From the sequence record PQ553088: DNA of 64,000 bases, one strand, 5' to 3'. Both the position numbers and the translations under genes were made by a program. The stretch comes from Escherichia phage OES_C-1. The notes below the pieces were generated by a model, which saw nothing but the letters and a program-made list of their open reading frames with translations, did not search any database and was not told the DNA's origin. Below, piece after piece: positions 761 through 63,999 of the stretch (position 1 is its first letter; every line of letters starts with the position of its first letter).

Positions 761-963
761 TTTGGTTTACCTTCTTTAACGAAATCAGGATAAGGATAAA
801 ATCCTGAATAAAATCCTTCGCCTTTATGATTGATGCATCCTTTATTAGAGCAATAGCACCAATAATCGAAATCACAAGCCATTTCATCATTGCATAAAGC
901 AAAAACAACTGGCCATTTACACTTTTCACAATGGGCATTTTTAAGAATACTAGTTTGGCTCAT
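757..963 (-). CDS. hypothetical Cys-rich small protein, 68 aa
   Basis: Track ORF 757..984 trimmed to ATG at 963, which forms an ATGA overlap with the upstream gene; many Cys/His, possible zinc ribbon. Confidence 0.5.
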   Translation of the reverse strand: MSQTSILKNAHCEKCKWPVVFALCNDEMACDFDYWCYCSNKGCINHKGEGFYSGFYPYPDFVKEGKPK

Positions 964-1172
964 AACCATGTAACCTTTAAGCAATATTCTTCTACATGTT
1001 GTTTATGACCTTTCTTATCAATAAAGGTATATTCAACGAATGTTCCAATATAGTCTTTATCTACATCATGCGGACTATTAATTGGACATTTAGTACGGCA
1101 AATGCGTTCCCATTGACGAATAATTACTGCCTTATTCTTTGGGTCATATGGATGTGGATAATGTATATTCAT
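960..1172 (-). CDS. hypothetical small protein, 70 aa
   Basis: Track ORF 960..1187 trimmed to ATG at 1172, which forms an ATGA overlap with the macro-domain gene stop. Confidence 0.5.
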   Translation of the reverse strand: MNIHYPHPYDPKNKAVIIRQWERICRTKCPINSPHDVDKDYIGTFVEYTFIDKKGHKQHVEEYCLKVTWL

Positions 1173-1636
1173 AATAACGGTTCCCAATCAACAATCACAA
1201 TTTCTAATTTAGAGGAATATGTATCTAAAATCCCCTCAATAATATCCCAGTTCCCTTTACCTATGCCTGCACCAATCCTAGGCATATAGATTGTAGGTTT
1301 AATCAGTTTATTTTCACCAAACTCATTTAATTCTAACATACAATTCATTAAAGCGGAATACTCAAAATTTGGCCCTGGTTGAAATTGAGTATAAAGGTTG
1401 AAGCAATACGCTTTATGAGTCCTAAAGTATTTTTCATAGACTGAGTAAGAACCGAGTTTAGTTACATCACCCCATTCAGTCTGTAATTTATCAGCTTCCA
1501 AAATTTTAGGGAAAGCTTTGGTTAATTGACCCGCTACGCCTGAACCCATAGTATGAAAACAATTGCATCCATGCGCAATATTTTTACCTTCAGCGAAAAG
1601 GGCGACAATATCGCCCTTGATATATTTTACAATCAT
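1169..1636 (-). CDS. macro-domain (ADP-ribose binding/processing) protein
   Basis: 155 aa; N-terminal pattern YIKGDIVALFAEGKNIAHGCNCFHTMGSGVAGQL resembles the macro-domain signature; tk.4 position. Confidence 0.65.
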   Translation of the reverse strand: MIVKYIKGDIVALFAEGKNIAHGCNCFHTMGSGVAGQLTKAFPKILEADKLQTEWGDVTKLGSYSVYEKYFRTHKAYCFNLYTQFQPGPNFEYSALMNCMLELNEFGENKLIKPTIYMPRIGAGIGKGNWDIIEGILDTYSSKLEIVIVDWEPLL

Positions 1637-1974
1637 CTAGTACTCAATCCTCGATTATAAGAATCTACCAAACGGTCAACCATTGAATGACAAGCGGCTT
1701 TATCTTTCTCCTCCGCAACTGAACATTCTAAGGTATTCCACTTTTTAGCATATCGTTTTAATAATGTATCGTTTTTGTATCTGCTTGATTTATCTCTTTC
1801 TCCGTCTTTATATGCATATATTAATTTCTGCGCAAATTCAGCTTGGCATGCTTTATTTTTCCCGCAATAATCCGCTGCAGTACGGTTTACATACTCTCTA
1901 ATTTCAGTATATGATGTATCTGCTAACACAGAAAATGAAATTAATCCTATACATAAAACCAAAATTTTAGTCAT
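1633..1974 (-). CDS. secreted/periplasmic protein, function unknown
   Basis: 113 aa; N-terminal signal-peptide-like MTKILVLCIGLISFSVLA; vs position relative to T4. Confidence 0.55.
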   Translation of the reverse strand: MTKILVLCIGLISFSVLADTSYTEIREYVNRTAADYCGKNKACQAEFAQKLIYAYKDGERDKSSRYKNDTLLKRYAKKWNTLECSVAEEKDKAACHSMVDRLVDSYNRGLSTR

Positions 1975-2512
1975 TTACTATTTCCAAAAGTTTATTATTT
2001 TTAAGGTAATTAGCCTTTTCTAGGACTTCAGAAGCATATTTAGAACCTGCTTTAACATTCCATCCCGAATTATAAGATGATATTGCTTTTCTTATATCAC
2101 CCTTATGTATATTTAACCAATAAGAAAGTTCAATGTACGCCCAGGAAGCTGAATTGGACCGTTTATTCAACATTCTTTTTATTTCAGCATCGGTCATATT
2201 ATAACCAAGTTCCTTGACTCTCGCTCGCATAGTAGGCAAATAATTTTGGAACATTCCATAGGCATGATGCTTTGGTTTAGATTTTAAATTAACTCCGGCA
2301 GAGCTTTCTTGCCACAAAATAGCAGCCATTATATGACCCAATCCGCTCTTATGGATGTTTTTGTGTGTTTTATATTTTCCATCCTTAGAAAATTGTTCCC
2401 CGAATTGATACGCGTAACGCATGTTATCGAGTTGGACATTACTGAAAGTATGCTCGGAGCTATGTGCCATCATTGAAATGGCCAATAGACCAGCGAGTAG
2501 TGCTTTTCTCAT
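1967..2512 (-). CDS. secreted lytic transglycosylase-like protein (SLT family)
   Basis: 181 aa; signal-peptide-like N-terminus; motifs LWQESS, GMFQ and SSYNSG resemble SLT catalytic motifs. Confidence 0.6.
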   Translation of the reverse strand: MRKALLAGLLAISMMAHSSEHTFSNVQLDNMRYAYQFGEQFSKDGKYKTHKNIHKSGLGHIMAAILWQESSAGVNLKSKPKHHAYGMFQNYLPTMRARVKELGYNMTDAEIKRMLNKRSNSASWAYIELSYWLNIHKGDIRKAISSYNSGWNVKAGSKYASEVLEKANYLKNNKLLEIVND

Positions 2513-2519
2513 GCTTACC

Positions 2520-2981
2520 TCATTGAGTTTTAATTACTGCTTTAGAAGCCTTTCCTGGTAAACGACGACTGTTGATAATTGCCATCCTGCACTGAAGTGA
2601 CGGGTCTTTGAACTTCTCGTTAGGTTTACAAACTGTAAATCCAAGCCAAAGATTTCCATCAGTGATTTCTAAACGTCCAGGACGATATTCAATCCCATCA
2701 ATAAAATCCTCGTCAATATCAGGGCGTGGAGGCATACTCAGGAATTCATTAACTTCTAAAACATGGTCTTTTATTTTATGGAATAATTCAAAAACATATG
2801 TCTCATCAATCTCCCGTTGAATTGCACGATCAAGAAGATGTTGAGAATATTTTAGATGAAACGATGAGACCCCTGCTGCTTTTGATGCCTCACGAATCTC
2901 ATTGTTAATTTGACGAAACTCCGACTCAAAGTGACGACGGAGCTTATTTCGACGGATAAAAACTTCTGTGTTGATAGTCAT
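2520..2981 (-). CDS. regB: RegB site-specific endoribonuclease
   Basis: 153 aa, same length as T4 RegB; position between tk and denV. Confidence 0.75.
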   Translation of the reverse strand: MTINTEVFIRRNKLRRHFESEFRQINNEIREASKAAGVSSFHLKYSQHLLDRAIQREIDETYVFELFHKIKDHVLEVNEFLSMPPRPDIDEDFIDGIEYRPGRLEITDGNLWLGFTVCKPNEKFKDPSLQCRMAIINSRRLPGKASKAVIKTQ

Positions 2982-3040
2982 GTTATTCTCCTCTTAACTG
3001 ATAGAAAAATTATACCACAGTCAAGAGGAAAAGTAAACAG

Positions 3041-3585: not shown

Positions 3586-3799
3586 ATTTGACTTCCTCAC
3601 CAGTACATAAATCATATTCAACTAAACGAATAGGTTCATGAATGCCATATCCCTGAACAGAAATTTCTGTCGTAGGATAAATTCCACTAATATCACCCAT
3701 GTTCCACGCTTCATTAAATTGCTGTTCGCCTGAATTACTAAACCATTCGGCGAAAGCATTTAGCACATCTTCAGAACCTTCAATAATTATCTTTGTCAT
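3578..3799 (-). CDS. hypothetical protein, 73 aa
   Basis: ATG at 3797-3799 forms TAATG overlap with the stop of the GrcA-like gene. Confidence 0.5.
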   Translation of the reverse strand: MTKIIIEGSEDVLNAFAEWFSNSGEQQFNEAWNMGDISGIYPTTEISVQGYGIHEPIRLVEYDLCTGEEVKYD

Positions 3800-4155
3800 T
3801 ACAGGCTCTCAGTAAAGGTACGAGCGATAACGTCGCGCTGCTGTTCCGGAGTCAGAGAGTTAAAGCGAACTGCATAACCGGATACACGGATGGTCAGCTG
3901 CGGATATTTTTCCGGATGCTTAACTGCATCTTCCAGAGTTTCACGACGCAGAACGTTAACGTTCAGGTGTTGACCACCTTCAATTTTAACTGTAGGCTGT
4001 GTTTCAATTTCACGGGCATGCAAACCATAGAAAATTTCTGGGTCTACAAAAGAGTCCTCTTTAAAGGTTTTAGAAACAATAATTCGTGCTTGAATACCAT
4101 CTTCAAAATAAATAGTACCTTTATGTGTGCCTTCAAGAATTTGATATGCTTTCAT
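3799..4155 (-). CDS. autonomous glycyl-radical cofactor protein (GrcA/YfiD-like)
   Basis: 118 aa; C-terminal half ...[59 protein letters not shown] carries the RVSGYAVRF glycyl-radical motif and matches E. coli YfiD as recalled; this half is GC-richer than the rest. Confidence 0.8.
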
Positions 4156-5172: not shown

Positions 5173-5589
5173 TTAAATGTAAATATTTTTGCCGTAATAC
5201 TTATACCAGTGTGGCTTCATTAAAATTTTTTCATCGAGTCGTTGTTGACTCAACTTAATAGCTGATTTGCATGGATTATAATCATTTTTCCATTCTACTG
5301 GAATATCGCTGATGTCAGGAACTTCAGTATCTTTTATACTGAACCCGCGTTTTAAGCATTCCGTTATAATGTCCGATTGACGCTTTCGCAAAAATTCTAA
5401 CTTATCGTAAAAGAAAGTAACATGACCAGAACCTAAAATAAATTTAGAAGATATTTTAAAATCTTTAGCGCGCTTACCGTTTGCCACATGCTTACGAACT
5501 ATACCAAAAACACGTGGTAATTCACGATACTCAGCCATAAGATGTTGGTCGGTCAGTTCAGAAACAAGTGTTAAATTGATACGAGTCAT
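5173..5589 (-). CDS. denV: endonuclease V (pyrimidine-dimer DNA glycosylase)
   Basis: 138 aa from ATG at 5589 with GGAGGAA upstream; [12 protein letters not shown]...WYKYYGK matches T4 endo V as recalled; track start at 5601 is TTG. Confidence 0.9.
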
Positions 5590-5647
5590 AATTTCCTCCA
5601 AGTAGTTGATGAATGTATAGTATCAAAGTCCTTGGAGGAAGTAAACA

Positions 5648-6450
<803 letters not shown>

Positions 6451-63114: not shown

Positions 63115-63999
63115 CTACATCTTGAACTTTTTAGACATTCCATTGATGTTAACCAAAGAAGCCAAGATTTGAGAAACTTCATTTTCCTCTTCTTTTGATT
63201 CTTCTACAAGGAATTGGTTAAATCCAGTCATTGGACGAACTTCACCAGTTTCCATCAGATGGTCACCATCATATACCGATTCTTCTAATTGTTCAGAAGG
63301 AGGAACGATTGTGCCTTCGATTAGATACTTGTTATAAGCAGTTTCTTTCATCATGTACGTACTCACTTTATTAATCTTCAGCAAAATTCCACGCGGTAGA
63401 ATAACTTCAGCTTCTGATGGAAATCCTGATAAATGACCTGGAACGATAACTTTGATTCGCTCAGCTCCTTTAATTACCATACCCACGCTAGTTTCAGCAT
63501 CTTCATTGGCATACGCAGAATGACTGCCCATATGCATTAAATCTTCAGCATCAACGGAACCTTCTCCTTCACCAGAAAATACTGCACTGGAATCATCTAG
63601 GGCCATATAGTTTTTACCATACTCACCGAAGATATTTGGTTTAAGTGATGTGGATACGAAGTTCTTGAAATAGAACATTTTATTTTCAATATTATGACGT
63701 AAAGTTTTAAAGGTAACTTCTTGGCCACGGTAAAGCGTAGTTCCTGGAGGAAGAACTGATCCTTTGGCAAAGGCAGAATCCATTGTCTCGATGTGTTTAA
63801 TAGCTCGTTCCATGTATTCTTCACGTGTAGAATCTGGTTTACCTAAAAGGAACGAGTTCATTTCAACATATGAATCTGCACAATAATCTTCAATTACATC
63901 AGACTCAGCTTGAGTTAATCCTTTTGGAGTTACTTCAGTACTTGCATATTCATACGCTTGAGAAGCAGACTCATTAATCAATTTATAAACGCCATTCAT
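63115..63999 (-). CDS. alt: ADP-ribosyltransferase (Alt/Mod family); N-terminus may be truncated by the window end
   Basis: R-S-E style motifs in order (LYRGQEV, FVSTSL, EAEVILP); ORF reaches the last codon of the window, so the upstream extent is unknown. Confidence 0.55.
   Translation of the reverse strand: MNGVYKLINESASQAYEYASTEVTPKGLTQAESDVIEDYCADSYVEMNSFLLGKPDSTREEYMERAIKHIETMDSAFAKGSVLPPGTTLYRGQEVTFKTLRHNIENKMFYFKNFVSTSLKPNIFGEYGKNYMALDDSSAVFSGEGEGSVDAEDLMHMGSHSAYANEDAETSVGMVIKGAERIKVIVPGHLSGFPSEAEVILPRGILLKINKVSTYMMKETAYNKYLIEGTIVPPSEQLEESVYDGDHLMETGEVRPMTGFNQFLVEESKEEENEVSQILASLVNINGMSKKFKM

Follow-up and report, generated by a model that had tools for sequence, protein, structure and literature searches.

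Positions 1169–2512 of the DNA analysed here, a 64,000-nucleotide window from Escherichia phage OES_C-1 (PQ553088), carry three tightly packed minus-strand genes: tk.4 (1169–1636, 155 amino acids), vs (1633–1974, 113 amino acids) and vs.1 (1967–2512, 181 amino acids). The source is a T4-like Tequatrovirus, with 100% identity to Escherichia phage OES_C-2 over 6.5 kb and 95–98% identity to many Tequatrovirus genomes. The proteins match those of T4, at 100% identity for Tk.4, 99.4% for Vs.1, 96.5% for Vs and 99.3% for the endoribonuclease RegB encoded next to them (2520–2981, minus strand; Pfam REGB_T4, 9.6e-69). These are T4 early genes that have long been catalogued; the finding is essentially already known, and the anti-defence role of tk.4 has recently been published.

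A preliminary description of this DNA had placed the three reading frames correctly but gave no strand and listed the macrodomain gene first; on the minus strand, the gene for the SLT-like protein is transcribed before that for the 113-residue protein, and the macrodomain gene comes last. The full order is regB, vs.1, vs, tk.4 and tk.3, with regB as the first gene of the unit and tk.3 (DUF7202; 960–1172, minus strand) directly downstream of tk.4. The spacing, read from the sequence, bears out the translational coupling that had been proposed: the ATG of vs.1 lies 7 nucleotides after the regB stop codon and is served by a GAGG Shine–Dalgarno sequence, vs.1 and vs overlap by 8 nucleotides (AATGACTAA), such that the vs start codon sits within the final codons of vs.1, and vs overlaps tk.4 by 4 nucleotides (ATGA), as does the tk.4 stop codon with tk.3 (ATGA). 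In the gap upstream of regB, the best minus-strand match to a σ70-like promoter (3009–3037; TTTACT-17-TATAAT with an extended −10 TG) is treated as a candidate only, because a promoter and terminator scan of the region returned a total of sites no higher than in shuffled sequence.

These are conserved genes rather than chance reading frames. Homologues of Vs, Vs.1 and Tk.4 are found in 795, 2013 and 2750 phage records, respectively, and the order regB–vs.1–vs–tk.4 is conserved across five genera. We considered whether the SLT-like and macrodomain proteins form one functional module and rejected the idea, as the arrangement appears to reflect synteny across an early block: Mordin, a Felix-O1-like phage, encodes both homologues in the same early cluster but with about 3 kb and nine genes between them, and in Aeromonas phage 44RR2.8t they are likewise separated by other genes. 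The three genes would thus be neighbours in a conserved early block, with nothing to indicate a single functional system.

The macro fold claimed for the product of tk.4 is borne out by a Pfam Macro match (PF01661; 27.7 bits, above the cut-off of 22) and by searches of the PDB with a Tk.4 family profile, which retrieved BT1257 (2.7e-17), TARG1 (6e-14), SCO6735 (1.7e-13) and DarG (2.9e-12), as well as Poa1p, in alignments spanning residues 3–151. Judged by sequence, Tk.4 is a stand-alone macrodomain of the ALC1-like class that includes BT1257, SCO6735, TARG1 and DarG. Residues Asn25, Gly33, Gln84, Pro119, Ile121, Gly122 and Gly124 are invariant in a set of 41 homologues whose identity falls as low as 35%, and both ADP-ribose-binding loops are kept—the N-terminal Asn with its Gly-rich loop and the C-terminal P-x-I-G-x-G loop. 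The Tk.4 N terminus has none of the features of a signal peptide by n-, h- and c-region and (−3, −1) criteria, consistent with a cytoplasmic protein.

The active site departs from that of DarG and TARG1. In the profile alignment, the catalytic lysine of the DarG Lys80 or TARG1 Lys84 type is absent, with Gln84 lying opposite TARG1 Lys84, and the position of TARG1 Asp125 is occupied by Gly or Ala126 in the Tk.4 family. The same alignment pairs Gln84 with a Gln of BT1257, an equivalence that depends on the alignment used, as a single-sequence alignment with BT1257 places that Gln elsewhere. SCO6735 requires Gln85 to cleave ADP-ribose linked to thymidine in DNA, the Q85A variant being inactive, and in the SCO6735/Bt_1257 subclass the mobile loop exceeds that of DarG and TARG1 by about five residues (PMC9411070). 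Tk.4 therefore resembles these two proteins in being a stand-alone single domain, in having them among its best PDB sequence matches and in carrying Gln at the TARG1/DarG Lys position; it differs in that sequence identity is only moderate and in that the mobile loop, longer in that subclass by roughly 5–6 residues, is not extended in this way, the insertion in BT1257 comprising six residues immediately after the Gln by profile alignment.

A 2025 preprint has named T4 Tk.4 AdfM, for anti-DarT factor macrodomain, and reports tk.4/adfM as the single HIDEN-SEQ hit against DarTG2 in T4, the sensitization of T4 to DarTG2 by a clean tk.4 deletion and an HHpred match of Tk.4 to DarG at 99.71% (10.1101/2025.11.20.689424). 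The support given there consists of genetics and structural similarity only. The protein described here has the identical 155-residue sequence, neighbours and gene order, and differs in nothing but coming from another Tequatrovirus isolate. Protection from DarTG2 is thus genetically established for the identical T4 protein, and the earlier proposal that the macrodomain counters a host defence based on ADP-ribosylation agrees with those published genetics; the hydrolysis step we infer. Tk.4 would protect the phage from the DarTG2 toxin–antitoxin system, most likely by hydrolysing ADP-ribose attached by DarT2 to thymidines in the single-stranded DNA of the phage, with a water-activating site centred on Gln84, as in Streptomyces SCO6735, in place of the DarG/TARG1 lysine. 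In vitro, the chimallivirus macrodomain that is also called AdfM strips DNA of its DarT2 modifications (PMC13309987). That protein (PhiKZ gp104) and the DarG2 macrodomain of T. aquaticus and M. tuberculosis share with Tk.4 the fold class and the opponent, DarT2. They differ from it in having, respectively, a putative active-site Lys78 (PMC13309987) and the catalytic Lys80 where Tk.4 has Gln84; in addition, DarG carries a second, DarT-binding domain, and the chimallivirus protein is imported into the phage nucleus.

Hydrolysis is not the sole mechanism by which Tk.4 could act, because SCO6735 also blocks DarT through direct binding (PMC9411070). Catalytically dead forms of SCO6735, DarG and TARG1 all inhibit DarT through interaction, SCO6735 most strongly (PMC9411070), and AdfA and AdfB inhibit DarT directly (PMC13309987). 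These precedents would suit a Tk.4 that works mainly as an antitoxin mimic, binding and inhibiting DarT2 rather than erasing the DNA modification. We regard such a mode of action as improbable: the invariance of Asn25, Gly33, Gln84 and Gly122-x-Gly124 in homologues so divergent argues for retained catalysis, and the chimallivirus AdfM is catalytic (PMC13309987).

A different substrate had also been proposed for the macrodomain, namely the products of phage ADP-ribosyltransferases. The Alt-like gene on which that proposal drew is indeed present at 63115–63999 (minus strand), where the window edge cuts it to the C-terminal 294 amino acids of Alt (Pfam ADPrib_exo_Tox, 3e-21; phrog_802, Alt-like, 5e-110, over profile positions 394–674 of 674). 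With macrodomains being general ADP-ribosylhydrolases and alt in the same genome as tk.4, Tk.4 might be the eraser of protein- or RNA-linked ADP-ribosylation written by Alt, ModA or ModB. T4 ADP-ribosyltransferases modify arginine, however, a target that does not fit the DNA-thymidine or Glu/Asp ester substrates of the relatives of Tk.4. The closest characterized of these relatives act on thymidine-linked ADP-ribose on DNA or on Glu/Asp-linked ADP-ribose on protein, SCO6735 accepting a protein substrate as well (PMC9411070). In T4 transposon data, moreover, tk.4 insertions are neutral when DarTG2 is absent (45 of 46 TA sites hit; log2 fold change of −0.07 in M9), and tk.4 is not next to alt, with about 62 kb of the window between the two. 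A writer/eraser pairing with Alt is highly improbable on these grounds, and we set it aside as lacking support.

The other two proteins appear to be destined for export. Signal peptides were sought with a crude heuristic that required a positively charged n-region, 10–15 uncharged hydrophobic residues in the h-region and a small residue at both −3 and −1. By this measure, the N termini of Vs and Vs.1 are canonical for the Sec pathway (signal peptidase I type), as the preliminary description had it, and these two adjacent genes are the only ones to pass among the 113 ATG-started reading frames of at least 60 amino acids in all six frames of the whole window. Cleavage is predicted at about AHS18|S19 in Vs.1 and VLA18|D19 in Vs. 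The features are kept in 37 of 38 Vs.1 homologues, and in both proteins the N termini are less conserved (about 29–30%) than the mature parts (57–58%), the values for Vs being 30% and 57%.

For Vs.1, the SLT-like fold first indicated by a Pfam SLT match (23.4 bits, above the cut-off of 21.3) was strengthened by profile and structure searches. A confident predicted model has a lysozyme-like GH23 fold and was placed by structure comparison alone, the GH23 matches of the single sequence and of the profile in the PDB being weak and none of them significant. Family 1 lytic transglycosylases are marked by a catalytic Glu in an E-S motif, a G-L-M-Q-like motif and an A-Y-N-x-G-like motif. Their counterparts in Vs.1 are WQE69S70S, YG86MF88Q89 and SY147N148xG150, in which Glu69, Gly86, Phe88, Gln89, Tyr147, Asn148 and Gly150 are invariant across 38 homologues, designating Glu69 by motif as the catalytic residue. 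Set beside family 1 and other GH23 enzymes—Slt70, MltE, MltF, MltC and EtgA, the last from type III secretion—Vs.1 is pared down to one minimal domain, which bears a conserved helical extension at its N terminus, and lacks a lipobox, a LysM and a superhelical domain; it is also phage encoded, expressed early and distinct from the phage endolysin (e) and tail lysozyme (gp5). The earlier view that such an exported protein is unusual was overstated, given homologues in the 2013 phage records noted above, T4-like, Felix-O1-like and Vi1-like phages among them.

We consider Vs.1 to be a putative lytic transglycosylase: a candidate Sec-exported, single-domain GH23/SLT enzyme with its catalytic Glu-Ser motif intact, which would reach the periplasm early in infection and cut peptidoglycan glycan strands locally, and which is dispensable on K-12 in rich medium. 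The roles in superinfection exclusion or cell-wall remodelling suggested earlier are speculative. Because GH23 spans both lysozymes and lytic transglycosylases, and the best structural matches include g-type lysozymes and a GH23 chitinase, Vs.1 might instead be a hydrolytic lysozyme or a catalytically inert peptidoglycan-binding protein. Either is decidedly unlikely, as neither Glu69-Ser70 nor the other two SLT motifs vary among homologues, and a non-rigorous look found no conserved second acidic residue.

The 113-residue protein, previously described as being of unknown function, is by sequence the orthologue of T4 Vs, the classical valyl-tRNA synthetase modifier by annotation. It matches phrog_1256 (7.5e-40) and shares with T4 Vs its position between vs.1 and tk.4; the two proteins differ by a 2-residue deletion and two substitutions, all of which fall in the predicted c-region of the signal peptide, leaving identical mature parts of 11.0 kDa. 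An AF2 model of moderate quality (pLDDT of 74, from a six-sequence alignment) shows a four-helix protein that matches no PDB fold (best E value of 2.0), so that no fold is assigned; its sequence finds nothing significant in the PDB, and an exhaustive HMMER search of 1.84 billion proteins returned only 7 representatives, all from the same narrow family, leaving no remote homologue to hint at what the protein does. Muller and Marchin, in 1975 and 1977, reportedly tied the vs locus to modification of host valyl-tRNA synthetase (ValRS) in vivo by classical genetics and biochemistry. Vs would modify this synthetase, and it matters for phage fitness in minimal medium: in the T4 transposon data, no gene is depleted more strongly than vs in M9, where its log2 fold change is −2.19.

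The predicted Sec signal peptide and the four cysteines of Vs (Cys37, Cys43, Cys84 and Cys95), which are invariant among homologues, sit awkwardly with binding of a cytoplasmic synthetase. They would be at home in a periplasmic pair made up of Vs.1 as lytic transglycosylase and Vs as its small disulfide-bonded regulator or inhibitor, with the ValRS role secondary or mis-assigned. The two signal peptides are the only ones detected in the window, the N terminus of Vs evolves fast, the overlap of the vs start codon with the end of vs.1 suggests coupled translation, and a different signal-peptide protein takes the corresponding position in Aeromonas phage 44RR2.8t. Vs with a tag at its N terminus is insoluble when made in the cytoplasm of E. 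coli, and a 1986 T4 record lists the vs reading frame only as 'ORF 60.9'. Transposon insertions in T4 vs and vs.1 are about tenfold below those in neighbouring genes, and both drop further in M9. We nevertheless judge the pair to be unlikely: the in vivo link of the locus to ValRS modification speaks against it, the depletion of vs.1 falls short of significance once corrected (adjusted P = 0.155) and might stem from polarity on vs, and Vs.1 occurs in about 2.5 times as many phage records as Vs, indicating that Vs.1 does not need Vs. Spelled out further, Vs would be a Sec-exported, disulfide-bonded protein working in the periplasm with the co-translated Vs.1, which it might regulate or inhibit. 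The vs defect in minimal medium would then reflect the envelope rather than translation, and the tie to ValRS would come either from a second activity of precursor that stays unexported or from a mis-assignment of the reading frame to the genetic locus; this fuller version we hold to be doubtful, if anything a shade more so.

The reading that we prefer as a whole—catalogued T4 early genes in which tk.4 encodes an anti-DarTG2 factor, vs encodes Vs and vs.1 encodes an exported GH23/SLT protein—has, in our estimate, a probability of roughly 0.8. Two points stand out. By the profile alignment, the T4 AdfM site is of the Gln type, like that of SCO6735, rather than of the DarG Lys type, which predicts a catalytic mechanism that differs from that of the chimallivirus AdfM with which it shares its name. 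The export hallmarks of Vs and its fitness profile, which is like that of Vs.1, would, if they do reflect a role in the periplasm, reopen a functional assignment that has stood for 50 years and provide an initial foothold for understanding Vs.1, an enzyme widespread among phages.

The three minus-strand ORFs of the block encode an SLT-like protein (vs.1; 2512-1967, 181 aa), a small protein (vs; 1974-1633, 113 aa) and a macro protein (tk.4; 1636-1169, 155 aa), and the coordinates of the preliminary description agree exactly with the ORF listing and the raw sequence. As all three lie on the minus strand, transcription runs from the SLT-like gene through the small gene to the macro gene, the reverse of the macro-first order under which they had been titled. 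The regB stop codon lies 7 nt ahead of the vs.1 ATG, where a Shine–Dalgarno GAGG is present; the vs ATG falls within the final vs.1 codons (AATGACTAA; an 8-nt overlap in the raw sequence), and ATGA overlaps mark the starts of the third and fourth genes (tk.4 and tk.3). A sigma-70-like site (TTTACT-17-TATAAT with extended −10 TG; 3009-3037, minus strand), the best minus-strand match in a scan whose sites were overall no more frequent than in shuffled sequence, sits in the ~60-nt gap that precedes regB, a likely candidate for the early promoter of the regB–vs.1–vs–tk.4 block.

Over its first 6.5 kb, the window shares 100% identity with Escherichia phage OES_C-2 and 95–98% identity with hundreds of Tequatrovirus genomes. 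Against the annotated T4 reference, the 155-aa, 181-aa and 113-aa proteins are 100%, 99.4% and 96.5% identical to Tk.4, Vs.1 and Vs, respectively, and the product of the gene upstream of vs.1 is 99.3% identical to RegB. The order regB–vs.1–vs–tk.4–(tk.3)–tk.2–tk is common to T4, RB69 (Mosigvirus) and VR26 (Gaprivervirus), and is also found in Klebsiella phage F48 (Marfavirus) and Erwinia phage Gravdalen (Winklervirus). The three-gene feature is already known: the SLT similarity of vs.1 and the A1pp/macro similarity of tk.4 have been on record since 2006, in a paper that refers to an earlier T4 genome paper for both (PMC1524935). Annotations have drifted, with all three genes labelled 'hypothetical protein' in the OES_C-2 record, the 113–115-aa Vs named plain 'valyl-tRNA synthetase' in many GenBank records, and several UniRef/NCBI entries for Vs.1 homologues called 'endoribonuclease' or 'site-specific RNA endonuclease', names apparently carried over from the adjoining regB.

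Three further features of the window deserve mention. Between denV (5173-5601) and the endolysin gene e (5926-6414), where T4 carries ipII and ipIII, there is a single 98-aa ORF (5648-5944, minus strand); its N-terminus is similar to the sequence that directs T4 internal proteins to the capsid, and it probably encodes an alternative internal protein at a known hypervariable locus. A G+C-rich 8-bp palindrome (AAGGGCGA-CAATA-TCGCCCTT) at tk.4 codons 7–13 (1598-1618) was flagged on the plus (antisense) strand by the terminator scan and would fold in the tk.4 mRNA too, just past the start codon; it may be coincidence, because the protein segment encoded here, IKGDIVALF, is conserved. The Vs.6 orthologue (3799-4155, minus strand; 118 aa) is a GrcA/YfiD-like glycyl-radical cofactor protein with a C-terminal RVSGYAVRF; the T4 annotation says the same, and the glycyl-radical similarity was remarked on in 2006 (PMC1524935).

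The macro-domain assignment is well founded: Tk.4 scores above the Pfam Macro threshold, and a profile built from 41 homologues strongly matches solved macrodomains (BT1257, 2.7e-17; TARG1, 6e-14; SCO6735, 1.7e-13; yeast Poa1p, 6e-13; DarG, 2.9e-12). On sequence grounds, Tk.4 is assigned to the ALC1-like class as defined previously (PMC9411070), and its ADP-ribose-binding positions N25, G33, P119, I121, G122 and G124 do not vary among the 41 homologues. In the profile alignment, the invariant Gln84 stands opposite TARG1 Lys84, a position occupied by Lys80 in DarG and Gln85 in SCO6735, in which the Q85A mutant no longer cleaves thymidine-linked ADP-ribose on DNA (PMC9411070). From this placement, the predicted catalytic residue of Tk.4 is of the SCO6735 type, an equivalence that depends on the profile alignment; a single-sequence alignment with BT1257 places the Gln84 segment differently. 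Although Tk.4 shares the Gln-type residue of the SCO6735/BT1257 subclass, it lacks the longer mobile loop of that subclass, as BT1257 shows a 6-residue insertion in the profile alignment.

The suggestion that the macro protein counters a host ADP-ribosylation-based defence was correct and had been published. A November 2025 preprint reported that tk.4 is the only T4 gene to turn conditionally essential on a host expressing DarTG2, a defence in which the DarT2 toxin ADP-ribosylates DNA, and that its clean deletion makes T4 sensitive to DarTG2; the authors renamed it adfM (10.1101/2025.11.20.689424). The chimallivirus macrodomain AdfM (PhiKZ gp104), whose putative active-site residue is Lys78 (against Gln84 in T4 Tk.4), strips DarT2 modifications off DNA in vitro (PMC13309987). 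For T4 Tk.4, we infer hydrolysis of ADP-ribose as a step in this counter-defence; action on DarT through binding-inhibition is also possible, as SCO6735 likewise inhibits DarT by binding (PMC9411070). The proposal that Tk.4 instead forms a writer/eraser pair with Alt, reversing ADP-ribosylation written by the phage itself, found no support: although the window does carry an Alt gene, tk.4 insertions have no effect on fitness when DarTG2 is absent (45 of 46 TA sites occupied; log2FC −0.07 in M9 in the T4 transposon data). T4 transferases make arginine ADP-ribose linkages, whereas the known substrates of the relatives of Tk.4 are thymidine-DNA and Glu/Asp esters.

Vs.1 barely exceeds the Pfam SLT threshold, and sequence searches of the PDB returned nothing significant. 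Across 38 homologues, down to 41% identity, Glu69-Ser70, Gly86-x-Phe88-Gln89 and Tyr147-Asn148-x-Gly150 are invariant; they match the three motifs of family-1 lytic transglycosylases. The proposed signal peptide also holds by classical criteria (MRK, a hydrophobic core and AHS↓S) and is retained in 37 of the 38 homologues; in the structural model, this N-terminus is a detached, low-confidence helix. When a crude signal-peptide filter was applied to the whole window (all six frames; 113 ORFs that start with ATG and are 60 aa or longer), only Vs and Vs.1 passed. Homologues of Vs.1 occur in 2013 phage records, among them Aeromonas and Acinetobacter T4-like, Felix-O1-like and Vi1-like phages, which makes an early, exported GH23 protein commonplace and the word 'unusual' an overstatement. 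T4 vs.1 is non-essential (insertions at 46 of 52 TA sites), and our literature search found no functional study of its product.

The 113-aa protein, previously said to be of unknown function, is Vs, the annotated valyl-tRNA synthetase modifier (phrog_1256, 7.5e-40, with the T4 annotation concurring), and GenBank record X04567, from 1986, lists its ORF under the name ORF 60.9. Binding of host ValRS by Vs is credited to Muller & Marchin 1975/1977 in a passage of PMC8076793. In the HIDEN-SEQ transposon data, no gene is depleted more strongly than vs in M9 glucose medium (log2FC −2.19). The family is tiny: homologues occur in 795 phage records, every one an enterobacterial T4-like phage, with 7 representatives and no detectable distant relatives among 1.84 billion proteins, and a moderate-confidence four-helix model had no fold match in the PDB. 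The signal peptide proposed for Vs likewise holds by classical criteria (Lys3, an 11-residue hydrophobic core without charge, then V-L-A↓D). Compared with T4 Vs (signal-peptide codons at 1921-1974 against L001:3675-3734, the comparison sequence with the T4 Vs region), a 2-residue deletion and 2 substitutions all fall in the predicted c-region, and the 95-aa mature parts are identical. Over nine homologues, conservation is 30% in the N-terminal segment and 57% in the mature part (11.0 kDa as predicted), which has four invariant cysteines, whereas Cys8 of the signal peptide varies. N-terminally tagged full-length Vs is insoluble in E. coli. These are hallmarks of an exported, disulfide-bonded protein, a picture that is hard to square with the reported action of Vs on a cytoplasmic synthetase.

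No functional link of tk.4 to vs or vs.1 was found. That Vs.1 and Vs act as a periplasmic pair seems unlikely, even though their predicted signal peptides would give them a common envelope destination and vs begins within the last codons of vs.1. Mean LB insertion read counts of 26.6 (vs) and 22.6 (vs.1), against 179–767 for regB, tk.4, vs.3 and tk.3, place both ~10-fold under flanking genes in the public T4 data (HIDEN-SEQ Extended Data Table 6, sheet S8, also the source of the log2FC values), and in M9 the further drop in vs is joined by one in vs.1 (−0.87; p 0.0055). The latter fails multiple-testing correction (adjusted p 0.155) and may be mere polarity on the translationally coupled vs; the joint pattern could reflect shared function or a polar effect. 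Moreover, Vs.1 occurs far more widely than Vs. Aeromonas phage 44RR2.8t has regB–vs.1 and tk.4 without vs; directly upstream of tk.4, and overlapping its start, lies the 146-aa ORF105c (L007:3356-3796, in the 44RR2.8t comparison sequence), whose lipoprotein-like signal-peptide N-terminus (MKKSIATLIAIGMYGC...) again suggests an envelope-targeted product beside vs.1. The Felix-O1-like Citrobacter phage Mordin encodes a Vs.1-like SLT protein with predicted export (gp003, L006:271-819), annotated as 'similar to T4 endoribonuclease RegB'. About 3 kb farther downstream, this early cluster also contains, after rIIB, the gene for a macrodomain protein of 264 aa (gp013, L006:3995-4789), which keeps the NLYTQ motif and has a C-terminal extension of ~110 aa.

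The preliminary observation itself is confirmed, and its interpretation is partly right: the counter-defence reading is correct, whereas Vs is a known protein, the writer/eraser pair is unsupported and 'unusual' goes too far. Two points keep their interest: for T4 AdfM, the Gln-type active site and, for Vs, the unexplained export signature.
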